Of a DNA stretch of 64,000 nt, positions 381 to 63,053 are shown one piece after another. The stretch covers positions 43,392-107,391 of the forward strand of contig DAOOOW010000001.1 in the NCBI GenBank assembly GCA_035387885.1, read 5' to 3'. This stretch comes from a bacterium (GTDB taxonomy: Bacteria > Patescibacteriota > Patescibacteriia > UBA2196). Positions within the stretch are counted from its first letter, which is position 1. Each line of letters opens with the position of its first letter. The notes beneath the pieces were generated by a model that did no database searches, was not told the DNA's origin, and saw nothing but the letters and a program-made list of their open reading frames with translations. Made by a program: the position numbers and the translations under genes.

Positions 381-1137
381 CAACTTTGTTACTATTTCTT
401 TTTGAGAAACGGACAAATATTTCTATTTATCTCTCTAATTCGCATTAGAGTTCGGACTATATCTTCCGCGCCTCCTCGGCGGGTCTAGCGTATAGTCTCT
501 GAGGATTTTAAAGATATAAATCTTGTTTTTTCGTTTTACGATACTTACCATTAACATTCATTTTATAAGCCAAATTAATAATTTTTTTAATTCCTGCTCT
601 ATTTGAATGAGCCCCACTTTGCATTAAAAAAACTATTTGCTTAAAAATTGTAAATGACTTTTGTTTGTCAGAAATAAAATTATATTTTTCAAAAAAAGGT
701 ATAATTTTATCAATTAAATCATCTCTATTTCTAACAACAAAAACATATGTATCGTCTTTCTTATTTTTAACATGGTTTTGTTTTAAATATCCGCAATCAA
801 AATATTTCTTTATAGTTTCCAAAATTTCTAATCGTAAATAACTTTGATTAATATGAAATTCTGGAATTACTTTTATTCCCTGTTTCATTTGCGGATCCTT
901 ATAGAAAGCGACATGAAAAGTTCCTTCACCTTCAGTAAAACCAACAATATACCATGGATTTATATGCTTTAATCTTTCCTGCTGATTGTCTGCGCTCAAC
1001 ACATTGTCACTATGTTTTATATTTTTCATCTATTTATTATAACATAGTAGTGTGAGATACTTCAACTCCTGTTCCTAAAAGGAGTTGGCCAGATTTTCCA
1101 GCATTTAGCTAGATTTATAGACAGCATGGATACTCCT
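381..1137 (-). mobile_element. Group I intron interrupting 23S rRNA, encoding a LAGLIDADG homing endonuclease
   Basis: 23S collinearity breaks after ...GAGACAGT (1138) and resumes at TTGGTCTCC (380). The minus-strand base before the 3' exon is G, consistent with the terminal guanosine of group I introns. The insertion point is near the E. coli 2593 region. Confidence 0.7.
508..1029 (-). CDS. LAGLIDADG homing endonuclease (intron-encoded, single-motif)
   Basis: Contains a LAGLIDADG-type motif (WYIVGFTEGEGTF). The ORF lies wholly inside the 23S intron. Confidence 0.85.
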   Translation of the reverse strand: MKNIKHSDNVLSADNQQERLKHINPWYIVGFTEGEGTFHVAFYKDPQMKQGIKVIPEFHINQSYLRLEILETIKKYFDCGYLKQNHVKNKKDDTYVFVVRNRDDLIDKIIPFFEKYNFISDKQKSFTIFKQIVFLMQSGAHSNRAGIKKIINLAYKMNVNGKYRKTKKQDLYL

Positions 1138-1171
1138 ACTGTCTCACGACGTTTTGAACCCAGCTCGCGTA

Positions 1172-1205
<34 letters not shown>

Positions 1206-1212
1206 GCTTCTA

Positions 1213-1248
<36 letters not shown>

Positions 1249-1475
1249 GAACTCCGCCGTCGCTATGGACGCTTGGGCGGAACTAGCCTGTTATCCCCGG
1301 AGTAGCTTTTATTCAATGATCTTTCAGCCACCTATATGGCATGATCGGTTCACTAACTTATGCTTTCGCAACTGCTCGTCTTGTTGGACTTGCAGTAAAG
1401 CAGGCTTAAGGGTTTGCCCTATCAATCCCGTTTCCATCGGGATCTAGCCTACCTTTGTAAATGCCTCCGTTACTT

Positions 1476-1507
<32 letters not shown>

Positions 1508-2889
1508 ACCAGATAATGTCCCCCTATAGGGGTTAGACTTACTAAATAACAAGGGTGGTATCTCACTATTGTCCCGATTGCTCGGGGCTCCCACCTATGC
1601 TGAACATGTTAATCAATAAATCAATATCAAGTTGTAGTAAAGCTTCACGGGGTCTTTTCGTCTAACTGTGAGAAGCCAGCATCTTTACTGGCATTGCAAT
1701 TTCACCGAGTCCCTTTTTAAGACAGTTTTCAGACCGTTATGCCATTCGTGCAGGACGGAACTTACCCGTCAAGGAATTTCGCTACCTTAGGACGATTATA
1801 GTTATCGCCGGCGTTCATCCGCGCTTCGGATCAGAGCTAGTCTCGATAAATCGATTTTCACCCCTCACGTTAACGTTCGGACACTGGCCAGGCATCAGCC
1901 CCTATACGTAGTCTTGCGACTTAGCAGGGACCTGTGTTTTTGGTAAACAGTCGCCTGAAACACGTTGGTTGCACCCCACATTGCTGTGGGGAGAGCTTAT
2001 CCCGAAGTTACGCTCGTTTTTTTGCCGAGTTCCTTAAAAAAGGGTTCTCTCGTTCACCTTAGTATACTCAACCCGCCTACCTGTGTCGGTTTACGGTACG
2101 GTTACTTTAATTCATGACTCTTGGTTTTTCTTGGCATTCAATCACATGAATTCGATCCAGCCGGAGCTTTCACTTCTACCAGCCGCGCCTCGTTAGACTC
2201 GGGCGGAAATCTCAAATTCCAAATCCTAAATTCCAAATAAATATCAAATTTAAAAAATCAAATTATAAATTATTTTAAAATTTAAAAATTTAATCATTAA
2301 AAATTATTTGGAAATTGAAAATTGAAAATTGGAAATTCCGTGCCGAATGCAATGAGGCACGGCCGGAACGTCATAGCCATAGGACGCTCATTCACTTGAA
2401 TACGTCGCCAAAAAGATAAAATTAAAGTAGGACAGGAATATTAACCTGTTCTTCCATCTTGTGTGACCCTTGGGCCATACAATTAGGATCGCCTAACCCT
2501 GGGATGACAGTCATTGCCCAGGAAACCTGAGGCTTTCGGTGGGCAGGATTCTCACCTGCCTTTTTGTTACTCATGCCAACATTCTTACTTCTGCTTCCTC
2601 CACACTCCCTCGCGGGATATGCTTCGCAGGTTAACAGAATACTCCTCTACCACATCACTGCTACGCAGTGGAAATCCGAAATCACAAATTCTAAATCCGA
2701 AACAATATCTAAATTCAAAAAAATAAAATATTAAAATTTTAAATTTAAATTTTTTAAATTTGTTTCGAATTTCGATATTCGAATTTCGTGCTTCCATTGC
2801 GAAGCAATGACATCCTCATCTTCGGTATTATATTTAGCCCCGAACATTTTTGGCGCATCTTCTCTTGACCAGTGAGCTATTACGCTATC

Positions 2890-2921
<32 letters not shown>

Positions 2922-3505
2922 TGGTTGTATGAGAAAAAACACCACCTTTAACACTTAATATAAATTTAGGGACCTTAGATAGAGATCTGGGCTGTTTCCC
3001 TTTTGACAATGAAGCTTAGCCCCCACTGTCTGACTACTGGAAATTTTAACCGGTATTCGGAGTTTGGTTGGGGAGGATATCTTGCGACTCCAGCCCCATC
3101 CAGTGCTCTACCCCCGGTTAAATATTAACCAGCGCTAGCCCTGAAGCTATTTCGAGGAGAACCAGCTATTACCAGGTTCGATTGGAATTTCACCCCTAAC
3201 CACAGCTCATCCCCGCGTGTTGTACGGCGCGTGAGTTCGGACCTCCTCCCACATTTCTGAGGGACTCATCCTGGCCATGGCTAGATCACCTGGTTTCGGG
3301 TCATACACATGCTGCCTTAAACGCCCATTTAAGACTTGGTTTCCCTATGCCTTAATCCGATTAACGGACTTAGACAAGCAACATAAGTATACTCGTTGGC
3401 TCATTCTTCAATAGGCACACCATTGTCCCGATTACTCGAGACTTTGATTCTTTGAAAACGTATGGTTTCAGAAACTATTTCATCCCCCTCACCGGGGTGC
3501 TTTTA

Positions 3506-3536
<31 letters not shown>

Positions 3537-4710
3537 ATCTTCGAAAGTATTTAGCCTTGGGGCATAGTCGCCCCTGCTTCAAACAGGATTTCACGTGTCC
3601 TGCCCTACTTAAGGTTCGTCATAATGAGATCTTTTCTTTTTGTATACTGGACTATCACCATCTGTGGTATTAGCTTTCCAGCTAATTTCTACTAAGAAAA
3701 AATTTTGTAACTCATTTTTTGTGTTATAAGCCACAAAAACTGACGCCTTGCAACACCTTAAACAGCAACGGCTCATACCTTTAAATACCGCTGCTCCGCA
3801 TCGGCATGCTAATTAATACAAATTATTTACGAATTATACAAATATAAATATTCGTAATAATTCGCAATTTTAATTCGCAAAATTCGCAGTCCAATGCGAA
3901 GCATTGGTAAAACACTGTTTAGGTTTAGGCTTTTCCCGGTTCGTTCGCCACTACTACGGGAATCATTATTATTTTATTTTCCTCCGCTTACTGAGATGTT
4001 TCACTTCAGCGGGTAAGCATCCCTCACTAACTTTTTGCTCCTTTAAAATTTAATCTTAAACATTTTTTGTTCATAAATATTTTATTTTTTATTTACAAAC
4101 ATTTTTATAAAAAAGATAAAATAATAAGCAGAAAGTTAGTGAGGGATAACGCAGGTTTACTACGTTGAGTTTCCTCATTCGGAAATCTCCGGATCAAAGT
4201 TTGCTTGGGAACTCCCCGGAGCTTATCGCACCCTGCCACGTCCTTCATCGCCTTTCGAAGTCTAGGCATCCACCATACGCCATAGTTCTAATATCCTTTT
4301 AAAAATCTTTTATTTTAAAATTTGAAACGTATTTATTACGTGCCTGCCCCGCATTTGCGGGGTAAAAAGATCACGCTTGTCCCGCGACTGCGGGATAAAT
4401 TCGCTTCGTTTTTACTCGATGTACATCCAGCACTAACTTTTTGCCAGTTTAAATATTTATTCTTAAAAACATTATTTAAAAAAATAATTTCTATTTTCCA
4501 TTAAACAAGGTCAATTAAAAAATAAATAAGCAAAAAGTTAGTGCTGGATAAATTGCTTTTACTTTATATATTGATTTCTCCTTTAATAAATTTTTAAAGT
4601 CCTATCCTTATCAACTAATTTCCATCTATTATATATAAACAAAAATTAACTGATAAATTTTTTCAAAATATTCGCATTTAATTCGCAATTTCAATTCGCA
4701 CAATTCGCAT

Positions 4711-11940: not shown

Positions 11941-12507
11941 ATGAAGAAAAAATATCTGCTCCTATTTTTTTCTTGTTTAATAATTCTAAATGGTATTTTG
12001 TTAAATTTTCCAATTGCTAAAGCCTCTTGTCTTTGCATTTGTCAAGATACAGCCAGAAACAGTACTTGTTTTTTTGACCAAAAAGATTCGGCGAGTATTT
12101 GTAAGGACACTTGCACAAACAACAACCTTGAATACCTAGATTGTGATAGTAGCAGACCAGATGAATCAGGATTTTATTGTACTACCCCAGGAACTCCAGA
12201 ACCAGCAGACGCCGCTAACGGTTCCAGCGGCAGCTCTGAGACAGCCAGTTTTGACAATCCAGTACCGATTTTTAATAAAAAATCTTTAGCTGATGTTGTT
12301 GGCTTAATTATTAAAGGCCTACTGGGTTTAATGGGAATAGCAGCTTTAGTTATTTTTATTTATGCCGGATTTTTGTGGATGTTTGCCAAAGGCAACAGCG
12401 CCCAAATTAAAAAATCAATTGATGTCATGAAATATTGTGTTTTGGGCATAGCTGTCATCTATTTATCTTATGCTATGTTAAAATTTGTTTTTGGGATTAT
12501 TAAATAA
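11941..12507 (+). CDS. Pilin-like secreted two-TM protein (VirB2/TrbC-like architecture) with a Cys-rich N-terminal variable region
   Basis: Signal peptide. C-terminal core GLIIKGLLGLMGIAALVIFIYAGFLWMFAKGNSAQIKKSIDVMKYCVLGIAVIYLSYA. Paralogous to 12761, 13126, 13789 and 32681. Confidence 0.55.
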   Translation: MKKKYLLLFFSCLIILNGILLNFPIAKASCLCICQDTARNSTCFFDQKDSASICKDTCTNNNLEYLDCDSSRPDESGFYCTTPGTPEPADAANGSSGSSETASFDNPVPIFNKKSLADVVGLIIKGLLGLMGIAALVIFIYAGFLWMFAKGNSAQIKKSIDVMKYCVLGIAVIYLSYAMLKFVFGIIK

Positions 12508-15447: not shown

Positions 15448-15888
15448 AATTTTCAATCTATGCTAAGCTTGTATATTCTAATAAAAACAGCTCGTTGACA
15501 AATATTAATATATTAAGGAAGGAAAAAGGTGATTACTTGTGGCAAAAACCATAGCCACTTTTGTATATCAAACAAGTATCCCTACTAAGGATGAAAGGGG
15601 CCCATTCGTGGCTGTTCATTCTAAAATGATAACGGGGGTTCTTGTTAAGAAAACAGCGGGATGTATATGGATAAAACCGGCTGTTTTAAATGAGCGCGGA
15701 TCTGTTGTTTCTATTAATAGATCAATTGCGCAATTTTCAATCTCAAAAATATCTGGCCCGATAAACTTCAAGCAATCAAGCTAACGAGCCAGTATTTTAT
15801 ATTAATAAACAGACCGCGAAAAATTAATAGCTTTTCGTTGGTCATAGTGTTGTTTAATTTCTTAACTCCCATGGTGGAGGAGGAAAAA

Positions 15889-16812
15889 ATGAAAAAGAGC
15901 GAAACTTTTATTCCGGGCGCCAACCAAATCAGTATTGGGTATGTAGCACTGTTCCCCGGAAAACTGACCCAGCTGAGAGACGACATCCCATGGGTAAAAA
16001 CCCGTGTGCTCAACGGCAATTTGCCGGGGACGGAAAAGGACTCGGGGATAACCGTGGTGCCGTGTCATTTGGATCACGGCAAAATCACCTTACCCGAGGA
16101 CATTGCCAACCACGCGTGTATCCAAAGATGGGAACGCGATGGTGTGACCCATCAAGAGGGCGGTCCGCTTCAACCGGTTTATGCCCTCAAGTCTGTTGAA
16201 AGACGCGGAAAGGATGAAAATGGCAATGGATTCGTCATCCTGCCGTGTCTTACAGATGGCAGTGCCCCCTATGGGTCATTTGTACCCGCCCAAGACGGCC
16301 AAAAAGATTACATCGTCGCCTATGTCAACAACATTGTGGACGGCATAACGGTTATGCTGATGGTGGAAGCCATTGAAAACGGAGTCTATCACGCCCACAT
16401 CTCGGTCGCGAATTTTACAGTCAATAGTATGACCGGGGAAGTTTTGCGTGAGAACGCCATCAACAGAGCGTTTGTGGTCGAAGGACGTCCGGATACTCTG
16501 CCGAATTTTTCTTCAAGAGTCGGCGAAAAGTATCTCGAAGCCTTTAAGGCGGCTATGGCCATTTTCAAAAGTATGGCGAAAGGCGAACGCCAGTGCGCCA
16601 TGTGGGTCAAGGACATTACCCGTCCGATCACTGCCCCCGTCCCCGATGCACCGTCTCCGGTTGAAGAACCGGCATCGGCGCCCGCTCCGGAAGCGAAAAG
16701 CAAAGGTGGCAAAGGCAAAAAGGCTGCCAAACAGCCCACGGCCGATGTCACGACCAATGGTGGCAACGGCCACACCGACACTGTGCCAGCCCCCAACGAA
16801 GTTGTTGCCTAG
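15889..16812 (+). CDS. Hypothetical protein, strongly GC-rich (about 50% GC against about 30% background), Pro/Ala/Lys-rich C-terminal tail
   Basis: GGAGGAGG RBS before ATG 15889. No family recognised. Confidence 0.6.
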   Translation: MKKSETFIPGANQISIGYVALFPGKLTQLRDDIPWVKTRVLNGNLPGTEKDSGITVVPCHLDHGKITLPEDIANHACIQRWERDGVTHQEGGPLQPVYALKSVERRGKDENGNGFVILPCLTDGSAPYGSFVPAQDGQKDYIVAYVNNIVDGITVMLMVEAIENGVYHAHISVANFTVNSMTGEVLRENAINRAFVVEGRPDTLPNFSSRVGEKYLEAFKAAMAIFKSMAKGERQCAMWVKDITRPITAPVPDAPSPVEEPASAPAPEAKSKGGKGKKAAKQPTADVTTNGGNGHTDTVPAPNEVVA

Positions 16813-16831
16813 TCCATCAGGACAAGGCAGA

Positions 16832-16863
16832 AGCTCGTCTCTTAGGAGACGGGCTTTTTTATT
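16832..16863 (+). terminator. Rho-independent terminator
   Basis: AGCTCGTCTCTTAGGAGACGGGCT followed by TTTTTTATTTT. Confidence 0.6.
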
Positions 16864-16963
16864 TTTATTTTTTTAAAACTTTTATTTAATCCACAACTTG
16901 ACCGTTCATAATAATTCTGATAGCCTATTAAAATAAAATATAAAATATTTGGAGGAAAAAATA

Positions 16964-17458
16964 ATGCCCAAGCATACCGTAGCGTCTCTTAAAGAAATAC
17001 CTTATGAATTCCATCCTGATTTAGAAAAAATAATAATTGCCTCGCAAACAAACAGAGGCGAAGAAAGTGTGCAAAAAGTACTCATTTCTTTGGCGAGTCT
17101 TAAGGGTGTGGTAACCGTCATTCCCACCACCACTTATTCTAAAAGAGATCGCTATGGTATTGATATGCAAATTACAATTACTACACACACAAAACAAGAA
17201 AACCGGTTTGGCAAAATCGTTGCTAAAAAAGTGATCCTGACATTCCCTTTGCAAATCAAAAGTTCTGTGATAACAGCCCAAAATTTTATTACTAAATACC
17301 CAGAAAGAGAAATTCCTGTTCTGGTACATTTGCCAGGTGCAACCACAAAAGAAATTATTAATGCCTTTGGCAGATTATTAGACAAATATAAATCACCAAC
17401 GCAAAGGAAAAACGGCATCATTGAGATAGCCGGAGAATATTCAAAAGACTCACCATAA
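16964..17458 (+). CDS. Hypothetical protein
   Basis: GGAGGAAAAAATAATG RBS. No domain recognised. Confidence 0.5.
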   Translation: MPKHTVASLKEIPYEFHPDLEKIIIASQTNRGEESVQKVLISLASLKGVVTVIPTTTYSKRDRYGIDMQITITTHTKQENRFGKIVAKKVILTFPLQIKSSVITAQNFITKYPEREIPVLVHLPGATTKEIINAFGRLLDKYKSPTQRKNGIIEIAGEYSKDSP

Positions 17459-24604: not shown

Positions 24605-25837
24605 TTAAACTTTAAATCTCTTGGTTAATTGTCCAACTTCCCTTAAAATTTGTTCTGGATTTCTTTTTTCAATTAAATCCTCATAAATCCATTTGGCAAT
24701 CATTTTCATTTCTTTTTCTCGCATCCCGCGAGTGGTACAAGCTGGTGTGCCGAGACGAATGCCGGATGGTTTAAAAGGCGAACCTGTTTCATATGGAACA
24801 GCATTTTTATTGCAAACTATGCCTGCTTTGTCTAACAAAACAGCAGCGTCGTGGCCATTAATATTTTTATCACGTAAATCAATTAATAATAAATGTTTGT
24901 CTGTGCCACCAGAAATAATTCTAAAACCATATTTTTTTAGCTCACTGGCCAAAACTTTGGCATTTTTAAGCACTTGTCTGGCGTATTTTTTGAATTTCAA
25001 ACTTTCAACTTCTTGCAAGCATACACCAATAGCCGCAACTACACTATTAAATGGTCCACCTTGTAAACTAGGAAAAATTCCTCGATCAATTTTATCTTTT
25101 AATTCTTGTCTACAAATAATTATGGCGCCTCTTGGCCCTCTTAAAGTTTTTTGTGTGGACATGGTTACCACGTCAGCGTCTGGAAAAGGTGAGCCCAAAG
25201 CTTTACCAGCCACTAAGCCGGCTTCGTGGGCAATGTCAGCTAAATAATAAGCTCCAACTTTTTTAGCGATTTCTGACATTTTCTTGTAATTAATTTCTCG
25301 CGCATAAGCCGTGCCACCAGAAATAATTAAATTAGGTTTTTCTTTTTTAGCCAGTTTTAAAATTTTATTATAATCAAAAACTTCAGTGTTTTTTTCCACA
25401 CCATAATAAGCAACATTAAAAATTTTTGAAGATAAAGAAATGGGTTTGCCAGACGGTAGTTTCCAACCATGCGATAGATGCCCGCCGTCGGTTAAATTCA
25501 TGGCTAATATTTTTTGTCCGGGCTCTAACAAACCGCTGATTACAGCTAAGTTGGCAATCGAAGCCGAAACTGCTTTGCAATTTACATGCCAATTTTTTTC
25601 TTTTAAACCAAAAACTTTTAAAGCTCTTTTATTGGTTAGATTTTCAATTTCATCAATAATTTCATTGCCCTGATAATATCTTTTACCAGGTTCGCCTTCA
25701 GAATATTTATTAGCTAAAACAGAACTCAAAACTCCCCGAACATTTGGGGAGGCATAATTTTCCGAAGCAATCAAAGTAATTTTTTCTTGTTGTCTCTTTG
25801 CTTCTTTTTTAATTAAATTATTAATTTCTTGATCCAT
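24605..25837 (-). CDS. glyA: Serine hydroxymethyltransferase
   Basis: SHMT family: PLP site TTHKTLRGPRGA-like (STQKTLRGPRGA), length 410 aa. Confidence 0.9.
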   Translation of the reverse strand: MDQEINNLIKKEAKRQQEKITLIASENYASPNVRGVLSSVLANKYSEGEPGKRYYQGNEIIDEIENLTNKRALKVFGLKEKNWHVNCKAVSASIANLAVISGLLEPGQKILAMNLTDGGHLSHGWKLPSGKPISLSSKIFNVAYYGVEKNTEVFDYNKILKLAKKEKPNLIISGGTAYAREINYKKMSEIAKKVGAYYLADIAHEAGLVAGKALGSPFPDADVVTMSTQKTLRGPRGAIIICRQELKDKIDRGIFPSLQGGPFNSVVAAIGVCLQEVESLKFKKYARQVLKNAKVLASELKKYGFRIISGGTDKHLLLIDLRDKNINGHDAAVLLDKAGIVCNKNAVPYETGSPFKPSGIRLGTPACTTRGMREKEMKMIAKWIYEDLIEKRNPEQILREVGQLTKRFKV

Positions 25838-32680: not shown

Positions 32681-33670
32681 CTATTGCCCACCGCAATAGT
32701 CCGACACACTTGCATGATAATGTGGATTAACGTCTTTTCTGTTGGTTTCATCTCTAAAGGTACATCCTGCTTTTTCTACCAACTGTTTCAAAAGAGCGGC
32801 TTGATCTGCAGATTGAAAATATTGGCTCCTAATATCTACCGCATATGACTGTGGTGGTGTAGTTGGCGTAGAGCCACCATAGTGACATGAATTTTTAGCA
32901 TGTGCACATTTTGGATCAGTCCAAGCTGCACCACTACAATTTTCTATCCCAGCAGAATCACTAATAGAAGTGATATAAATATCTGAGGATTTTAAAACCA
33001 TACCACCGGCGCCAGCATCTAGAGTATCTTTCATACAGGTAAGCGCCCTTTGGAGTGCGGGAGAAACATCCTTTGCCTGATCATGCCTTCCGTTAGGAAA
33101 TGGATTAACACCTCCTGAATAATCTGTAACTGCTCTTGTGCACGAAGCTATGGCAGAAACAGGTAACAAAACTGCAGTACTCGTTTCCCACCCCCCGCCA
33201 TTACCAGAATTGGTAACTTCTACATCTCTCCAAATAATATCGCCTGCGGTTGGTTTTTTCTCACAAGTAAATGTTTGCCATGATTGTTTAAAAACGGTCG
33301 ACACACCTTTACCAGTTTGTTTGCCGTCTGTCAAAGTATAGATTAAATAATTCACTCCAGCCCAAGCAATATAGATAACAAACATGCCAATTACTGCATT
33401 AATCATAATTTTGGTGGCACTAGATATTTTAGCAGAATTACCTTTACTAGTAATTAAAGTCAAGCCAGCATATAAGAACATAAGCAAGGCGGCCACTCCA
33501 GAAAGACCAATAATATAATTGGCAATTTTGGTAACCAAATTTAAGGCATCACAAAAACCGCAATTACCTGTGGCATAACAGTCCATTACCAAACTGGCCC
33601 CTTGAGCTATAAAGGGAATTAACAAAATGCTTAAAGAAAAAATTAAAATTTTAGATTTATTTTTCAACAT
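32681..33670 (-). CDS. Large pilin-like protein: signal peptide, VirB2/TrbC-like two-TM core, and a Cys-containing C-terminal domain of about 200 aa
   Basis: Core LMFLYAGLTLITSKGNSAKISSATKIMINAVIGMFVIYIAWAG is paralogous to the 11.9-14.2 kb cluster. Adjacent to pilT. Confidence 0.55.
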   Translation of the reverse strand: MLKNKSKILIFSLSILLIPFIAQGASLVMDCYATGNCGFCDALNLVTKIANYIIGLSGVAALLMFLYAGLTLITSKGNSAKISSATKIMINAVIGMFVIYIAWAGVNYLIYTLTDGKQTGKGVSTVFKQSWQTFTCEKKPTAGDIIWRDVEVTNSGNGGGWETSTAVLLPVSAIASCTRAVTDYSGGVNPFPNGRHDQAKDVSPALQRALTCMKDTLDAGAGGMVLKSSDIYITSISDSAGIENCSGAAWTDPKCAHAKNSCHYGGSTPTTPPQSYAVDIRSQYFQSADQAALLKQLVEKAGCTFRDETNRKDVNPHYHASVSDYCGGQ

Positions 33671-39821: not shown

Positions 39822-39840
39822 TTGTCGAAATTTTCGACAA
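39822..39840. promoter_or_regulatory. Perfect 19-bp palindrome TTGTCGAAATTTTCGACAA upstream of the TrmB-like gene. A second TGTCGACA lies at about 39757
   Basis: Read directly. Candidate operator. Confidence 0.4.
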
Positions 39841-39862: not shown

Positions 39863-40606
39863 ATGTTAGATAAAAAACTTATCCACACCCTTATTAAAAT
39901 TGGTTTAAATGAAAAAGAAGCCGAAATCTATCTGTCCTCTTTAGCTTTAGGTCCTAGCACAGTCGCTAAAATTAGCCAATCCTCTCAAATAAAACGCACT
40001 ACTGTGTATTCAGTAATTGAATCTCTAAAAGAAAAAGGGCTAATGTCTATCCAATTAAAAGGTTTCAAACAATTCTATGTGGCTGAAAAACCAGATAAAT
40101 TAGCAGATTTTTTAGAAGAAAGAAAAAAAACCCTTAAAAACGCTCTACCACAATTCGAATCTCTATATCAAATGAAAGGCATAGAAAGCGTTATTAAGCA
40201 TTATGAAGGTCTAAACAACATTAAAAGCTTATACAACAGCGTTTTAGCTGATTTAAAATTTAAAGATGATTATTTAACCATCTCTGATACTAAACGTTGG
40301 CTAGCTCAAGATGAAGAATTTTTTAATGATTTTATTAAAAAAAGAGCTAAACACAGAGCCAGAGTTCGTTTGCTTTTACAAGACAATGAAGTGGCTCAAA
40401 ACTTTAAACAATTTCAAAGAAACTATGGTATTGAAGTCAAAATATTGCCTATGGACACAGAGTTAAACACTAATTTGCTGGTTGTTCCTAAACAACTAAT
40501 TATTCAGCAATTAACCATACCCTATGAAGCTGTGGCTATAGAAAATCAAAATATAATTAATATGGGCAAGCAACTGTTTGAAATTATTTGGTCAACCTGC
40601 AAATAA
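39863..40606 (+). CDS. TrmB-family transcriptional regulator
   Basis: N-terminal wHTH (LNEKEAEIYLSSLALGPSTVAKISQSSQIKRTTVYSVIESLKEKGL). Length 247 aa. Paralog of 41662. Confidence 0.75.
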   Translation: MLDKKLIHTLIKIGLNEKEAEIYLSSLALGPSTVAKISQSSQIKRTTVYSVIESLKEKGLMSIQLKGFKQFYVAEKPDKLADFLEERKKTLKNALPQFESLYQMKGIESVIKHYEGLNNIKSLYNSVLADLKFKDDYLTISDTKRWLAQDEEFFNDFIKKRAKHRARVRLLLQDNEVAQNFKQFQRNYGIEVKILPMDTELNTNLLVVPKQLIIQQLTIPYEAVAIENQNIINMGKQLFEIIWSTCK

Positions 40607-40653
40607 AAAAGCCGAGATGTTGCCACCTCGGCCGTACTGCTGACTCGTCATCA

Positions 40654-41235
40654 TTAGAATGTGTGTTTCAACGCTGCCATGAATAACGGCGTTTTTTTAT
40701 CTAGGTTATAGGTTGCCGACAAAATAATTTTTTCATTACCACAAGGCAAAGAATAATTTATCGTCGGCATATGCGCTGGTTTTTCATCCAGGTAGTGCAA
40801 CACAGAGAAACCTGCACCAAAATTACCAGCTACAACATCCACAGAATGATATGCAAAACAGAAATTCGCCTTCCAAGTCGGTTTCAATACTTCACCAGCC
40901 ATTACACCAAACCAGCTGGTGAACGTTACAAACTTGGCAAAGTTTGGGGTGTAACCGACAAATGGCCCAGCCCAGACCGTTTTATAATAGACCCCAAAGC
41001 TAGGACCTACTGAAATCCCTGAGGGCAGATTTTTTAAAAAAATAAATTGCCCCAAGGTGCTGTTGAACTCGGCCATTAAAAGTATACTTTTTGCCGAATC
41101 AAGAACAGTTACTGCTCCACCCAGGCCAGAGCTAAGAGCGCTTTGGCCAGATGAAACTTTTATGTCAGTGACTTTTTGGGCCATCACCATGGTGGCAACG
41201 GCCAATACCAGCATCGCGATCATCATCTTTTCCAT
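40654..41235 (-). CDS. Secreted beta-barrel-like protein (OmpW/OmpA-like outer-membrane-protein texture) ending in a C-terminal Phe
   Basis: Signal peptide MEKMMIAMLVLAVATMVMAQ. Alternating hydrophobic beta-strand pattern. C-terminal ...LKHTF. Elevated GC. Preceded by leader copy 3. Confidence 0.5.
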   Translation of the reverse strand: MEKMMIAMLVLAVATMVMAQKVTDIKVSSGQSALSSGLGGAVTVLDSAKSILLMAEFNSTLGQFIFLKNLPSGISVGPSFGVYYKTVWAGPFVGYTPNFAKFVTFTSWFGVMAGEVLKPTWKANFCFAYHSVDVVAGNFGAGFSVLHYLDEKPAHMPTINYSLPCGNEKIILSATYNLDKKTPLFMAALKHTF

Positions 41236-41274
41236 AACCACCTCGTATTTTAGTGAATACTCCTGCCGGACTTT

Positions 41275-41360
41275 CCAGCAGAATAGTGCCTTAATTATTG
41301 TCAAACGATCAAAAGCAATCATACTTTGGTCGTTCTTAGTTTTTAAGGCATAAGTCTGCT
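41275..41360 (-). promoter_or_regulatory. Conserved structured leader/operator, copy 3 (compensatory T-to-C change in both arms)
   Basis: Arms CCAGCAGACTTATGCCTTAA / TTAAGGCACTATTCTGCTGG, against CCAGTAG.../...CTACTGG in copies 1 and 2. Confidence 0.5.
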
Positions 41361-41615
41361 GGAAATAAATTTTTAAAGTGCTGTATATCTTTTTATTTGC
41401 CATTCAAAAACTCTTCCTTGTTGTGAGAAGAGTTGAGAGTTATAAATCTAATATCTGGTGCTTTTGAGGAAATTAATCCTCTTGGCACTTTTTCTCTCTT
41501 CTCATTCTCTATTACTAGAATAGCATTTTAAAGGTATTTGTCAATAATTATGCCACATTTAAAAATGTTCTAATGGCTTAAGTTAGGCAATAATACCTTA
41601 TTTAATAAGACATGT

Positions 41616-41632
41616 TGTCAGAATTATTGACA
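41616..41632. promoter_or_regulatory. Palindrome TGTCAGAATTATTGACA upstream of the second TrmB-like gene
   Basis: Read directly. A similar TGTCAATAATTA lies at about 41549. Confidence 0.35.
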
Positions 41633-41661
41633 CATTTAAGAAAATTTGCTATACTTTATAT

Positions 41662-42393
41662 ATGGAAATAGAAGAAAAATTATTAGTTGATTTGGGGCTT
41701 TCCCCAACCGAAAGCAGAGTGTACCTAGCTGTTTTAGAGTTAAATAGCAGTACAGTCTTAAACATTGCCAAAAAAGCAGGCATCAAAAGACCAACCTGCT
41801 ATTTAAATTTGGATAATTTAGTAATCAAAGGCTATGTCACGAGAATTGAAAAACACAGTACCACTTTGTATACAGCAGAAAAACCAAGTTTTATTTTAAA
41901 TAAATATAAGGAAAAAATAGAAAACTTTAAAGATTTACTGCCTTTTTATGAAGCGAAATTTAATCGCGGTCCCAAGCCAAAGATTAGATATTATGAGGGT
42001 AAAGAAGAAATTTGGAATATTTATACAAAAATCATTTTTCCCTCTGAAGAACTGTATTTTTTTGGCACCGACATACAAAAAATAGAGAAAAACTTTCCCA
42101 ACCTGCTTGATTATTGGTTAAAGAAATTTTCTTCTAAAAATAAAAAAATGATGGAAATTGTTTCTTTTAATGAAGCCGGCTTTAAATACATGACCAAATA
42201 TAAAAAAAATCACCTCATAAAAATTATGCCAGCCAATCTGCCGGTTTTTGCTGATTCGGTTATTACAGAAAATAAAATTTTTATTATTTCTCTGAAAAAT
42301 CTTTTTGGGGTTTTGATTGAATCAGAAGACTTGGCCAAGACTTATAAAAATTTTTTCTTACTGGCTTGGCAAGCGGCTAAAAAAATGAAATAA
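41662..42393 (+). CDS. TrmB-family transcriptional regulator (paralog)
   Basis: wHTH LGLSPTESRVYLAVLELNSSTVLNIAKKAGIKRPTCYLNLDNLVIKGYV. Length 243 aa. Confidence 0.75.
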   Translation: MEIEEKLLVDLGLSPTESRVYLAVLELNSSTVLNIAKKAGIKRPTCYLNLDNLVIKGYVTRIEKHSTTLYTAEKPSFILNKYKEKIENFKDLLPFYEAKFNRGPKPKIRYYEGKEEIWNIYTKIIFPSEELYFFGTDIQKIEKNFPNLLDYWLKKFSSKNKKMMEIVSFNEAGFKYMTKYKKNHLIKIMPANLPVFADSVITENKIFIISLKNLFGVLIESEDLAKTYKNFFLLAWQAAKKMK

Positions 42394-42399
42394 ATTTTT

Positions 42400-43060
42400 G
42401 TTCCATATAGAACATTTAAAATAAAGTTTTCCACCAAAAATCTCTATTTAAGGCACTTTTCCACAAATTGTCTACACTAGTGTAGACAATTTTTATTTTA
42501 GCAAAAATAAGCCTTTAAATGTTCCATGTAGAACATTTAAAATAAAGTTTTCCACCAAAATGGCTTTTTTTTACCACTTATACACATTTTGTCTACACAC
42601 GTCTAGACATTTTATTAATTTTCACTCAATCACAACCAGTTTTTACTCTTGTCAGCTAGTTCTTTTTTTTTAAGATAATATTATTTAAAAAAATAAAGTT
42701 TACCCATCGGGGTTTAATTTTATTGTTAAATAATTGCAGTATGATAAACATTTTGTTCCATGTAGAACAATTTTAATTATTTTGGCAGATATTTATTCTA
42801 AATTAGGCATTTTCATAAAAATTGAATTTTTATGAAAAAATGCCTTTTTTTAGTCTTTTTGTTTATTATTAGCCAAAATCACCATTTTTCCAAAAAAAAT
42901 TGAATTTTTATGAAAAAAGAGTGTTTTTTACTTAAATTAGCCATTTTAGTCATTTTTCCAAAAAAATCCATCGTTTGACAAAATTAAATAAATATTTTTT
43001 TATTTAAAAAATGTCTACACAGGTCTAGACATTTTATTTTTTAATATTTTTTATCTAAAA
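42400..43060. repeat. Non-coding cluster of three iteron-like repeat families
   Basis: TGTTCCATGTAGAACATTTAAAATAAAGTTTTCCACCAAAA at 42400, 42522, and partially at about 42753. Palindrome TGTCTACAC..GTCTAGACA at about 42468, 42588 and 43012. AAAATTGAATTTTTATGAAAAAA at 42818 and 42897. Confidence 0.55.
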
Positions 43061-43120
43061 TTTTTTAAACCACCAACAAGTGGTGGTTTAAAATAAAAAA
43101 TAATTATTTATAATCAACTT

Positions 43121-43194
43121 TGGTGGACTTAGGCAGAATTGAACTGCCGTCTCCGCAATGCGAATGCGATGTATTACCACTATACGATAAGCCC
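43121..43194 (-). tRNA. tRNA-Ala (anticodon CGC), CCA encoded
   Basis: Acceptor GGGCTTA, anticodon loop TTCGCAT, T-loop TTCAATT, 3' ACCA. Confidence 0.75.
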
Positions 43195-43232
43195 GGTTTA
43201 ATAAAATTGTTGGAAAATTAACTCTAAAAAAT

Positions 43233-43304
43233 TGTCCTCGGAGGGAATCGAACCCCCATCTGTCCCTTAGGACGGGATTATTCTATCCATTGAACTACAA
43301 GGAC
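43233..43304 (-). tRNA. tRNA-Arg (anticodon CCT)
   Basis: Acceptor GTCCTTG/CGAGGAC, anticodon loop GTCCTAA, T-loop TTCGATT. Confidence 0.65.
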
Positions 43305-43471
43305 ATACACAAATATTAAAAAATAATATTATTATATTATCATTTGCTTTACAAAAAATCAAAAAAAACATAAGATAAAATTGATTATTTATAATTTAAA
43401 AAATATTTTTTAACCTCTAAATATTAAAAATTTACTTTTAGTTCTTAAGTAAGAACTAAAACCATAAAATT

Positions 43472-43846
43472 ATGTCAAAAGAAAATTTTAAAGATGTGGA
43501 AACAATTATTGGTCCATCTGTTAAAGTAGAAGGCGATTTTAATGCTGATGGTAATGTAATTATTGAAGGACAAATGCTGGGCTCTTTTAAAACTCAAAAA
43601 TCTTTGCGCGTGGGTGAAGAAGCAATTATTAAAGCTGCTATAGAGGCAGAAAATGCTTGGGTGGGAGGACAAATTGAAGGCAACTTAATTATTAAAAACC
43701 ATTTGGAATTATCCAGTAAAGCCAGAATTAGGGGTGATATTCAAGCACAAATTTTAACCATGGAAACAGGCGCTCAAATTAATGGTCAAATAAAAATGAA
43801 TGGCGAAGATACTGTGTTTAAAACAATGAATGAGGAAGAAGAGTAG
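43472..43846 (+). CDS. Bactofilin family cytoskeletal protein
   Basis: Beta-helical G-rich repeats (V.G.F.ADGNVIIEG...G..I.G.L.I) typical of bactofilin/DUF583. Confidence 0.7.
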   Translation: MSKENFKDVETIIGPSVKVEGDFNADGNVIIEGQMLGSFKTQKSLRVGEEAIIKAAIEAENAWVGGQIEGNLIIKNHLELSSKARIRGDIQAQILTMETGAQINGQIKMNGEDTVFKTMNEEEE

Positions 43847-45836: not shown

Positions 45837-45900
45837 ATAGAATTTATTATAACATTATTTATTTCTTTAAACAATTATTTGCTAATATTAGCTGTCTAAA

Positions 45901-46988: not shown

Positions 46989-48359
46989 ATGAATAATGAG
47001 CAACTTTGGCAAGCTATTTTAGGAGAACTAGAAGTTTCTATTTCTAAAGCTAACTTTACTACTTGGTTTAAAAATACTTTTGTTTTAGAACAAGAAGATA
47101 ATAAGCTTATTGTAGCCGTACCCAACACATTTACCAAAACTTGGCTAGAAAATAAATACAATAAAGCTATTATTTCGGCTCTTAAAAAAATAACCCAAAA
47201 CAAACTCAATGAAATATATTATAAAGTTTCTTTGGTGCCTGAAAAAACCACTAATTCCGTGCATAATTTAAAAAATATTATTAAAAATGATTTAGAATTA
47301 AAAAATACCGAAAACCTTAAAACCGATAATCATGGATTAAATCCTAAATATGTGTTTGAAACTTTTATTGTAGGTAAAAGCAACGAACTAGCCTTTGCAG
47401 CTGCTCAAGCAGTGGCTAAAAACCCAGGCAAATCCTATAATCCACTCTACATTTATGGCGGTGTGGGTTTAGGTAAAACTCATTTATTACAAGCTATTGG
47501 TCATGAAATAGTTAAAAAAAATCCGCAAGCCAAACTTTTATATGCAACCAGTGAATATTTTACCAATCAATTCGTTTTTGCTATTCGTTCTAATAAAACC
47601 AAGGAATTTCAAAACAAATTTAGAGATATTGATGTTTTAATTATTGATGATATTCAATTTATTTCCGGCAAAGAACAAACTCAGGAACAATTATTTCATA
47701 CTTTTAACGATTTACATCAAAATAATAAACAAATAATTTTTTCCTCTGATAGAATTCCTAAGGCTATTGCTGGTTTAGAATCAAGATTAGAATCACGTTT
47801 TGAATGGGGTATGATTGTCGATATTGCTGAACCAGACACAGAAACTAAAATTGCTATTATTGAGGCTAAATTAATTGAAAAAGGCTTTTCTTTAGATAAA
47901 AACATTGTTTTATTTTTGGCTACCAATTCCGGTCGCAATGTTAGAGAAATAGAAGGTATTATTAATCGTATTATAGCCCATTGTGATTTAATTAGTCATG
48001 ACAAAGAAGTCACTCTGGAAGACGTTAAAAATATTTTACAGACCATTAATCAACATTTACCTCAAAGTGCTATTACAATCAAAAAAATTATTAAAATTGT
48101 AGCAGAATTTTATGATGTATCATTGGATGATATTCTTAGTGAATCTAGAAAAAAAGAATTAGTTGAACCAAGACAAATTACCATGTATTTAATTAGAGAA
48201 GAAATTGGTTCATCATTTCCCAATATTGGTCAAGAACTTGGCGGTAGAGACCACACCACTGCCATGCACGCTTATGAAAAAGTTAAAAAGTTAGTTTTAG
48301 AAAATGATAAAATTAAACAGGATATTTTTTTACTCAAACAAAAACTTTATAATGATTAA
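46989..48359 (+). CDS. dnaA: Chromosomal replication initiator DnaA
   Basis: AAA+ Walker A GGVGLGKTHL. C-terminal DNA-binding domain (MYLIREE...LGGRDHTT). Confidence 0.95.
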   Translation: MNNEQLWQAILGELEVSISKANFTTWFKNTFVLEQEDNKLIVAVPNTFTKTWLENKYNKAIISALKKITQNKLNEIYYKVSLVPEKTTNSVHNLKNIIKNDLELKNTENLKTDNHGLNPKYVFETFIVGKSNELAFAAAQAVAKNPGKSYNPLYIYGGVGLGKTHLLQAIGHEIVKKNPQAKLLYATSEYFTNQFVFAIRSNKTKEFQNKFRDIDVLIIDDIQFISGKEQTQEQLFHTFNDLHQNNKQIIFSSDRIPKAIAGLESRLESRFEWGMIVDIAEPDTETKIAIIEAKLIEKGFSLDKNIVLFLATNSGRNVREIEGIINRIIAHCDLISHDKEVTLEDVKNILQTINQHLPQSAITIKKIIKIVAEFYDVSLDDILSESRKKELVEPRQITMYLIREEIGSSFPNIGQELGGRDHTTAMHAYEKVKKLVLENDKIKQDIFLLKQKLYND

Positions 48360-48611
48360 AAATTGTGTACAAATATGTTGATAAAATTATAAATAACGTG
48401 CTTAAAAATATTATTTTATTTTACAACATATTTTATTAACATAATTTTATTTTTTTTACACTTATTTGTTAATATTTTATCAACAAGTCTAAAATTCAAA
48501 TTTAAGACAATTAAAAAGTTTATACAGCATATTTTAAAAAAAATTATTGGTTATCCACTGGGCTTATTATTATCATTAAATTATATTTAAATATTAATTA
48601 ATAATAACAAT
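48360..48611. promoter_or_regulatory. Candidate oriC / DnaA-box region in the dnaA-dnaN spacer
   Basis: AT-rich, with TTATCCACT (48551-48559) and degenerate boxes. rpmH-dnaA-dnaN synteny. Confidence 0.4.
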
Positions 48612-62360: not shown

Positions 62361-63053
62361 ATGACTCCAGAATATCTGTTAGAATTAAAAAAGAGCTTAA
62401 AAATTTCAGTTGACCAGATTTTGCGCGAGGAGGCAGAAATGATTTTTTTAGAGGCTTTAGCTAAAGACCAGCTTGGTGCCAAAGTCATTTTTTATGGCGG
62501 AACTTCCCTGCGGCTGGTGTATGGTTCACCAAGATTTTCTGAAGATATTGATTTGATTAAGATTAAACCATTTAGCTTGGCTGAATTTAAAAAATTTGCT
62601 AATAAAGTAGCCAAAAATAATTCTTGGGAATTAAGAGACCTTAGGGGTAAAAGGCAGACTTTATTTGCTTTATATTTTATTAAAGATGAAAAATTAAAAC
62701 ATCCATTTTCTATAAAAATTGAAATTCATACACCCAAAAAAAAGCCCATGATTGATGAAAAAATAGCTTTAATTAAAAGCCCAGTTTCTGTTTTAGAACC
62801 ACTACTCTTGGTGCCAAGCTTAACAAAATTAAAAGAATTAAAAATAGCGGCTTTATTAGATAGAAAAAAAGCCAGAGATATTTTTGATTTATGGTATATT
62901 GCTCAAACGCTAAGAGAAGAGTTTGTCTTGCCAAAAAAAATAACCCCATATAACAAAAGAGAGTTTAAGAATGAATTACAAGTTTTTTTGCCAACTAAAT
63001 ATTATTCAATTATTGAACAATTATATGAACAAGTTGCTAATTCAAATAAATAA
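62361..63053 (+). CDS. Nucleotidyltransferase toxin, AbiEii/AbiGii (DUF1814) family
   Basis: FYGGTSLRLVYGSPRFSEDIDL matches the AbiEii GGTAL..YG..R.SEDLD signature. Confidence 0.75.
   Translation: MTPEYLLELKKSLKISVDQILREEAEMIFLEALAKDQLGAKVIFYGGTSLRLVYGSPRFSEDIDLIKIKPFSLAEFKKFANKVAKNNSWELRDLRGKRQTLFALYFIKDEKLKHPFSIKIEIHTPKKKPMIDEKIALIKSPVSVLEPLLLVPSLTKLKELKIAALLDRKKARDIFDLWYIAQTLREEFVLPKKITPYNKREFKNELQVFLPTKYYSIIEQLYEQVANSNK

Follow-up and report, generated by a model that had tools for sequence, protein, structure and literature searches.

A conserved intergenic hub of putative parS-derived palindromes and DnaA-box modules near the replication origin of a Patescibacteria chromosome

Replication and segregation of the small chromosomes of Patescibacteria (candidate phyla radiation, CPR) are almost wholly unexplored. 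Here, we analysed a 64,000-nucleotide segment of the AT-rich chromosome of an uncultivated, ultra-small bacterium (GenBank assembly GCA_035387885.1, contig DAOOOW010000001.1, positions 43,392 to 107,391; hereafter the window; ~32% guanine plus cytosine, GC) and focused on the 727-bp spacer at window positions 42394-43120, which lies between a TrmB-family gene and a tRNA-Ala/tRNA-Arg pair. We consider it fairly likely that this spacer is a chromosomal, vertically inherited hub of putative protein-binding sites flanking the origin in a Patescibacteria genome, in which an origin-proximal parS cluster is merged with a DnaA-box cluster and with candidate sites for a further protein. This reading builds on the motifs themselves, their rigid spacing, their conservation and synteny, and their position relative to the GC skew.

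A first-pass annotation of the window had reported three interleaved repeat families in this spacer, and all three are real: they lie where it had placed them and exceed chance expectation by far. Family 1 (TGTTCCATRTAGAACA) occurs without mismatch at 42399, 42520 and 42754; with up to three mismatches on both strands it gave 8 matches against 1.2 expected, a number that none of 100 shuffled sequences reached. Family 2 (TGTCTACACnnGTnTAGACA), found at 42469, 42590 and 43012, gave 6 strand matches against 0.08 expected, and family 3 comprises AAAAATTGAATTTTTATGAAAAAA at 42817 and 42895 together with TTTTTCCAAAAAAA units at 42852-42898 and 42920-42966. The first two copies of family 1 stand at the head of a tandem duplication of 121 bp, with 80% identity across 94 nt, and families 1 and 2 turned out to be parts of one 121-bp unit that is present twice in tandem. 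The spacer has a GC content of 25% and was rightly described as free of open reading frames (ORFs), with 0 ORFs of at least 40 amino acids (aa). The coordinates of all elements are given in Table 1.

To the right of the tRNA genes follow the genes for bactofilin, a DAGK-like protein and a PRC-barrel protein, then yidC, yidD, rnpA, rpmH, dnaA (46989-48359) and dnaN; dnaA, dnaN, rnpA and yidC are identified. The spacer is thus ~4 kb from dnaA (4.2 kb for the cluster of the palindrome described below). The first-pass annotation had likened the spacer to plasmid or phage replication origins and had proposed the cumulative GC skew as a check. Across the window, the cumulative skew declines until it reaches its minimum at 47,746 and climbs steadily from there on; two-segment fits gave the best breakpoints at 47.6-48.7 kb, and we place the switch at 47.7-48.6 kb. 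Since this switch lies ~5 kb to its right, the spacer is origin-proximal, but the minimum itself belongs to the dnaA-dnaN side.

Relatives were gathered along three routes, namely contigs carrying TrmB orthologues, a scan of a genome collection with a bactofilin alignment, and a scan of metagenomes with DnaA; the resulting loci carry the prefix L. The neighbouring genes have their homologues in Patescibacteria assemblies, and the gene order tRNA-Arg(cct), bactofilin, DAGK, yidC, rnpA, rpmH, dnaA is kept across the clade. In dozens of relatives (loci L007-L125), the bactofilin gene and then the DAGK-like gene stand beside tRNA-Arg(cct) and parS sites. The motif order of the spacer is repeated upstream of tRNA-Arg(cct)-bactofilin in at least seven genomes (L005, L006/L039, L007, L008, L009/L046, L010 and L048) whose DnaA proteins are only 57-71% identical to that of the window, and among relatives the element cluster keeps a distance of 3.5-4.6 kb from dnaA. 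Because this layout is conserved, we regard the spacer as functional and vertically inherited. Besides, such conserved cis-elements could serve to anchor origin regions in fragmented metagenome-assembled genomes.

The first element of the hub is a 16-bp palindrome within family 1 (palindrome A, palA), three copies of which lie within 370 bp, ~5 kb from the GC-skew minimum. Comparison with relatives suggests that palA is likely a diverged parS centromere site; as parS we counted 16-bp palindromes matching TGTTNCACGTGAAACA or TGTTCCACGTGGAACA. Close relatives carry TGTTCCATATGGAACA in 3-5 copies, while at the same syntenic spot more distant relatives have TGTTCCACGTGGAACA (L013, L024, L029 with 4 copies, L069, L070, L072, L073, L101 and L103). 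The latter sequence is identical to parS2/parS3 of Pseudomonas aeruginosa (PMC4368675) and to the P. putida consensus, and is one base off the Myxococcus xanthus consensus TGTTCCACGTGGAACG (PMC7022226). Intermediate cores (CACATG, CATGTG and CATATG) are present in closer relatives. The palA copies of the window have 4-5 mismatches to TGTTTCACGTGAAACA; they keep the outer TGTTC/GAACA and have lost the central CG, which seems to have turned into TA through transitions in these AT-rich genomes. The two halves of the 121-bp duplication have diverged in the stretch separating their DnaA boxes, but their palA copies differ at the central base only, a pattern that argues for constraint on the palindrome. 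Measured against the four P. aeruginosa parS sites nearest oriC, the likeness lies in clustered 16-bp palindromes a few kb from the origin, in the identical sites of relatives and in window copies 2 and 3, which equal parS5 on the other strand. Unlike in P. aeruginosa, the CACGTG core has changed to CATATG among close relatives and to CATRTA in the window, DnaA boxes and a second palindrome lie interspersed among the sites, L048 has lost palA altogether, and no ParB was located in the inspected DNA.

The remainder of family 1 and family 2 form a rigid unit of 83 bp (module 1), and 10 copies of it from 6 genomes could be aligned without gaps over 83 columns. Each module runs from TTWTCCACCAAAA through a T tract to TTWTNCACA, 30 bp past the first box, followed by WTT and a 20-bp palindrome, TGTCYASA-N4-TSTRGACA (palindrome B, palB). 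It thereby holds two putative DnaA boxes on the same strand (TTWTCCACC and TTWTNCACA), 30 bp apart. Across the 10 copies, TCCACC of the first box and T.CA.A of the second are invariant and the spacer between the boxes is variable. Positions 3 and 5 are the degenerate positions of the relaxed DnaA-box consensus TTWTNCACA, and it is these two that vary in the second box. In the window, four matches to TTWTNCACM, all on the plus strand, fall within 160 bp, compared with a background of 0.45 per kb, which makes this the densest DnaA-box cluster of the window. By inference rather than by mapping, we see in these boxes a candidate DnaA-box cluster distinct from the unwinding site. The distance between palA and the first box is not fixed and ranges from ~2 to 30 nt among genomes. 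The idea that the cluster had been relocated into this region from the rpmH-dnaA spacer was dropped, as box counts flanking dnaA were low and variable across ~70 relatives and showed no anticorrelation.

Several points speak against the combination of parS and DnaA-box clusters proposed here. The core of palA in the window is CATATA or CATGTA and not CACGTG, while an intact CACGTG core matters for ParB binding in P. aeruginosa, where parS5, identical to window copies 2 and 3, was bound weakest of ten sites (PMC4368675). Two of the four DnaA boxes (TTTTCCACC) have two mismatches to TTATCCACA. L048 is devoid of palA, yet retains modules 1 and 2, so that the parS layer seems dispensable for the other elements. 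Moreover, no ParB gene was found in the ~85-90 kb of the host that were inspected (the 64-kb window plus 10 kb past each end): neither a regular-expression scan for the GERR motif together with Pfam on 30 ORFs of the window nor the gene tables of the 10 kb beyond each end revealed one. The same applies to 1.24 Mb of dnaA-centred loci of relatives (126 loci, all ORFs), where phmmer was run with an approximate Spo0J query. In the literature, we found no paper treating parS or ParB in Patescibacteria. Our confidence in the combined reading is held at its moderate level mainly because a ParB gene was not found in the inspected sequence and because protein binding is deduced from sequence features.

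Two further parS-like arrangements were noted. An isolated site, TGTTTCATATGGAACA, lies at 24785..24800 within the gene for serine hydroxymethyltransferase, at a distance of 18 kb to the cluster, and may be an extra parS or a chance match (~1.2 expected at up to three mismatches). In L029 (positions 3001-3050), one canonical parS is centred in a 50-bp perfect inverted repeat (gcacattgcttatcaattGTTCCACGTGGAACaattgataagcaatgtgc), and the three other copies share the flank TTTATAGCACTTTAGC. The drift of the core from CACGTG to CATATG within one lineage offers a system in which to test how ParB specificity co-evolves with its site.

The spacer might alternatively be the very site at which chromosome replication starts, or that half of a split origin on which DnaA assembles; DnaA would oligomerise on the arrayed boxes and open the AT-rich tract beside them. 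Its box cluster, in a single orientation, is the densest of the window; the modules of L048 hold four boxes with at most one mismatch, including one perfect TTATCCACA, versus three in the dnaA-dnaN and one in the rpmH-dnaA spacer; and the low GC content, the promoter-like units and the kept distance to dnaA would suit an origin as well. Direct-orientation box pairs in very AT-rich DNA near dnaA are likewise features shared with the basal unwinding system of oriC. This system comprises a DnaA-box pair, DnaA-trios and an AT-rich element, with the trios, (NAN)x3 or longer, no farther than 16 bp from a box (PMC8287927). However, no (NAN)x3 run and no GC spacer follow any box in the spacer at 42394-43120, where box 2 gives way to WTT and then palB. 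Trios of this kind are found instead at 48551-48578 in the dnaA-dnaN spacer, with a strand orientation that we infer from the sequence, and the succession of box, short GC spacer and (TTA)n run recurs in the dnaA-dnaN spacers of the window, L047/L048, L051 and L052, making these the better fit to the basal unwinding system. A further DnaA box, TGTTGATAA, follows right after the dnaA stop codon at 48376 and is kept in L005 and L024. In addition, the cumulative skew still falls from 43.0 kb (-1027) to 48.5 kb (-1075), with the turn some 5 kb away from the repeats. Because of the box/trio layout and the skew minimum, we place unwinding at about 48.5 kb; the repeat spacer is probably not the unwinding origin, and we regard the idea that it is the origin or half of it, our main alternative, as rather unlikely.

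Returning to the hub of protein-binding sites, palB behaves as a site for a protein on double-stranded DNA. In 22 copies, the outer TGTC/GACA is invariant and the half-sites vary semi-independently. Inner mismatches show no strand bias (8 G.T, 8 A.C and 12 other), and RNAalifold gave no covariation support for a palB hairpin (covariation term +0.29); both observations fit a protein site on double-stranded DNA. We know of no described site with this sequence. As a practical consequence, palB could be used as bait to pull down its presumed binding protein.

Candidates for this protein are close at hand. The suggestion of the first-pass annotation that the spacer might be a dense regulator-binding region also fits our data, and in its strictest form it would make the spacer an operator array for TrmB-family regulators, with palB and possibly palA as operators controlling local transcription, and with no role in replication or segregation. 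A TrmB-family gene occurs no more than 4 kb upstream in 6/6 palB-containing genomes with enough flanking sequence, as opposed to 1/~40 relatives without palB, and TrmB1, the paralogue farther from the spacer, has its own TGTC...GACA palindrome upstream (TTGTCGAAATTTTCGACAA, 39822-39840). On the other hand, the adjacent TrmB genes fall into at least four paralogue groups (22-38% identity) that do not track the palB variant, and L004, whose TrmB2 orthologue is 80% identical, carries neither palA nor palB in 13 kb. As the six genomes belong to one clade, a single event in their ancestry may lie behind the association; moreover, palA traces to canonical parS, and the conserved DnaA boxes would be left unexplained. 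We therefore consider a purely TrmB-based operator array improbable, and the TrmB proteins a lead, not an answer, in the search for the palB-binding protein.

The same annotation had called the TrmB locus foreign-looking and had placed an outer-membrane protein next door. The TrmB gene is not foreign: TrmB2 has >60 orthologues in Patescibacteria at 51-80% identity, and the GC content around it is that of the genome average. At 39863-42393, a minus-strand ORF of 249 aa (40654-41403) stands between two TrmB paralogues that share 24% identity. This ORF is not a recognisable outer-membrane protein; it matched no Pfam family and had no tblastn match in any relative's locus, and is, by these comparisons, a species-specific gene. 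The palindrome TTGTCGAAATTTTCGACAA is perfect and lies 22 bp upstream of the TrmB1 start, and a similar one, GTGTCGAATATTTCCGAC, stands beside the TrmB-like gene of L009; the former is a candidate autoregulatory operator of the TrmB1 paralogue.

Family 3 belongs to a different type of element. It consists of two tandem minus-strand promoter-like units (module 2), each with a T run, TTGGNN, 16-17 nt and TAATAT, and the window, L048, L039 and L008 all keep such a minus-strand pair. The TAATAT sits inside a palindrome, GCTAATATTAGC, and in L039 and L008 the units are followed by a hairpin that is not conserved in the window. Clade-wide, GCTAATATTAGC also occurs upstream of yidC, rnpA and tRNA-Arg (window 45881-45892; L038 6138; L019 6314 and 6580; L025 2450; L018 2407; L032 1767 and 2438), and at tRNA-Arg it follows GTGTCGTAAAA. 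The palindrome resembles a local, lineage-typical -10 promoter element or else a global-regulator site. A small ORF overlapping the units (42879-42971, 30 aa, minus strand) was rejected as a conserved ORF, since L039 has no ATG at the same place.

Promoter-like units and terminator-like repeats could together also indicate that the spacer is a cluster of small transcription units, each made up of a promoter and a short RNA that ends at a hairpin and T run (palB or the AT-rich hairpins), so that the conserved sequence would be RNA. palB-1 is terminator-like, and 5 such sites occur in the region, compared with 0.3 expected from shuffles. The two conserved sigma-70-like promoters of the minus strand are followed by a T run 45-60 nt on, preceded in L039 and L008 by a CCTGT...ACAGG hairpin. 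Yet, an Rfam scan of the spacer returned only chance-level matches (at the gathering score and at E values up to 5), palB is the only structure predicted in module 1 and lacks covariation support, and its mismatches are not G.U-biased on either strand. The window and L039 do not share the hairpin stem of module 2, no conserved promoter precedes module 1, and the spacing from palA to box 1 varies by the ~2-30 nt mentioned above. A cluster of short RNA genes is thus a very unlikely explanation of the spacer as a whole.

Least probable of all, and in our view barely tenable, is a remnant of the plasmid- or phage-type origin with iterons that the first-pass annotation had put forward, or a miniature inverted-repeat transposable element (MITE) inserted by the tRNA genes. 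tRNA genes are common integration sites, the spacer adjoins two of them, and direct and inverted repeats are mixed in its AT-rich DNA. Nevertheless, what is repeated is a composite module of 121 bp, present twice, and not an array of short iterons (17-22 bp) at regular spacing, and no gene for a Rep/initiator protein, integrase or transposase lies nearby, the neighbours being TrmB, tRNA and bactofilin genes. The spacer had no match among 72,556 plasmids and a single 59-nt AT-rich, low-complexity match to a phage, and the module signature was absent from viral contigs. The dispersed copies that the first-pass annotation had named as the mark of a MITE did not turn up elsewhere in the window or in ~25 kb of flanks (~90 kb of the same genome in all), apart from the parS-like site at 24785, and position and layout are fixed across genera. 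What holds of the suspected link to replication are therefore the putative initiator (DnaA) boxes and their place ~5 kb from the GC-skew minimum, whereas the plasmid or phage origin falls away.

For the hub as we read it, precedents exist for single parts. Origin regulators whose sites abut or overlap DnaA boxes include Spo0A at Bacillus subtilis oriC and CtrA at the Caulobacter origin. Like these sites, palB is close to a DnaA box, at a constant distance of 3 bp, as would be expected of a site that modulates DnaA binding; unlike them, it is also found away from DnaA boxes, beside the tRNA terminator. The boxes resemble the DnaA-box clusters (DBCs) of B. subtilis and datA of Escherichia coli in being intergenic, consensus-like and outside but near the unwinding origin. 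In B. subtilis, DBC deletion leads to early initiation, and the DBCs interact genetically with spo0J, i.e. ParB (PMC3245932). The putative boxes described here differ in forming fixed pairs 30 bp apart, each abutting a 20-bp palindrome and interleaved with parS. In M. xanthus, a bactofilin/PadC scaffold positions ParB-parS complexes (PMC5703909); similarly, a bactofilin gene stands beside parS clade-wide and the parS consensus TGTTCCACGTGGAACG is nearly the same, but here the relation is one of gene adjacency only, with no PadC or ParB in the inspected sequence. Judged by its motifs, the locus would thus combine two known kinds of element, an origin-proximal parS cluster and an origin-proximal DnaA-box cluster, and what would be new is their interleaving in modules of fixed geometry, the drifted parS core and the palindrome 3 bp from a DnaA box.

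How might such a hub work? The proteins proposed for each element, and what their binding would do, are extrapolated from the motifs. ParB would load on the three diverged parS palindromes, build a partition complex and recruit SMC by the origin. The two 83-bp modules, with box pairs about three helical turns apart, would form a DnaA-box cluster outside the unwinding origin and thereby titrate or position DnaA, and palB, 3 bp past the box pair, would bind a dimeric protein that could assist or hinder DnaA at the neighbouring box. The two tandem minus-strand promoter-like units in the AT-rich tract would add a third layer. One step further, the rigid module (parS, box pair, 3 bp, palB) could be a coupling element that brings ParB, DnaA and a lineage-specific palindrome-binding protein into one phased complex; we offer this as a speculation that we doubt more than we trust. 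The palindrome-binding protein may come from the locally expanded TrmB family, and the complex, possibly anchored by bactofilin, might link initiation to origin segregation in reduced-genome bacteria. If true, the locus would be an organiser of the origin region without a described counterpart in model bacteria. Should the elements act together, they would provide a compact example of initiation control physically coupled to segregation. Either way, the locus supplies a concrete set of conserved cis-elements, i.e. a drifted parS lineage, fixed DnaA-box pairs and a 20-bp palindrome.

Table 1. Elements of the spacer and neighbouring features (window coordinates; binding sites, boxes and promoters are predicted)
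Feature	Coordinates	Strand	Sequence or description	Basis
TrmB2	41662..42393	+	TrmB-family winged-helix regulator gene; stop 5 bp before first palindrome	Pfam PF01978, E=7.7e-15
palA-1	42399..42414		TGTTCCATATAGAACA, 16-bp palindrome, likely parS-derived	relatives carry TGTTCCATATGGAACA or TGTTCCACGTGGAACA at homologous position
DnaA box 1a	42427..42435	+	TTTTCCACC within conserved TTWTCCACCAAAA	consensus scan, alignment
DnaA box 2a	42457..42465	+	TTTTCCACA, one mismatch to TTATCCACA	consensus scan, alignment
palB-1	42469..42488		TGTCTACA-CTAG-TGTAGACA, 20 bp, 3 bp past box 2a, then T run	terminator-like on plus strand
palA-2	42520..42535		TGTTCCATGTAGAACA	reverse complement of P. aeruginosa parS5 TGTTCTACATGGAACA (PMC4368675)
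DnaA box 1b	42548..42556	+	TTTTCCACC	consensus scan, alignment
DnaA box 2b	42578..42586	+	TTATACACA	consensus scan, alignment
palB-2	42590..42609		TGTCTACA-CACG-TCTAGACA	motif scan
Decayed head of third module	42690..42704	+	AAAATAAAGTTTACC	repeat analysis
palA-3	42754..42769		TGTTCCATGTAGAACA, also reverse complement of parS5	motif scan
AT-rich inverted repeat	42806..42852		GGCATTTTCATAAAAATT / AATTTTTATGAAAAAATGCC, then T7	repeat analysis
Promoter-like unit 1	42866..42899	-	T run, TTGGAA, 16 nt, TAATAA	sequence
Promoter-like unit 2	42934..42966	-	T run, TTGGAA, 16 nt, TAATTT	sequence
Conserved motif closing module 2	42968..42983	+	CCATCGTTTGACAAAA	window, L048, L039, L008, L007
palB-3	43012..43031		TGTCTACA-CAGG-TCTAGACA, A run and T run on flanks	motif scan
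Intrinsic terminator hairpin	43063..43093	-	3' of tRNA pair	13 pairs, then T-rich tail
tRNA-Ala(cgc) and tRNA-Arg(cct)	43121..43305	-	tRNA genes	tRNA-Arg(cct) is the clade-wide locus anchor
Bactofilin gene	43472..43846	+	neighbour of parS sites, kept clade-wide	Pfam PF04519, E=3.1e-24
dnaA-dnaN spacer, likely unwinding origin	48360..48611	+	TTATCCACT (48551-48559), GGGC, TTATTATTATCATTA, AT-rich DNA to dnaN	sequence

Elsewhere in the window, we made a few observations on other subjects. In the region 508-4296, the 23S rRNA match spans 3244 nt as compared with the 2925 positions of the model, with inserts amounting to ~320 extra bases, and the adjoining minus-strand ORF of 173 aa (508-1029) corresponds to a gene annotated LAGLIDADG_1 in the matching contigs L043 and L044. 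Together, inserts and ORF suggest a homing-endonuclease intron, and such introns are common in Patescibacteria rRNA genes. A stretch at 16000-17000 (ORFs 15838-16812 and 16949-17458) has 50% GC in this 32% GC genome; its ORFs matched no Pfam family and the stretch itself had no Rfam match at E values up to 0.1. Pilin-like genes of the T4SS_pilin/TrbC type are found at 11941-12507 and 32681-33670. Finally, some 13-15 kb to the right of dnaA (62361-63053, and L040 6944-7138) there are genes of toxin-antitoxin type, which encode an AbiEii nucleotidyltransferase and an antitoxin resembling HicB.

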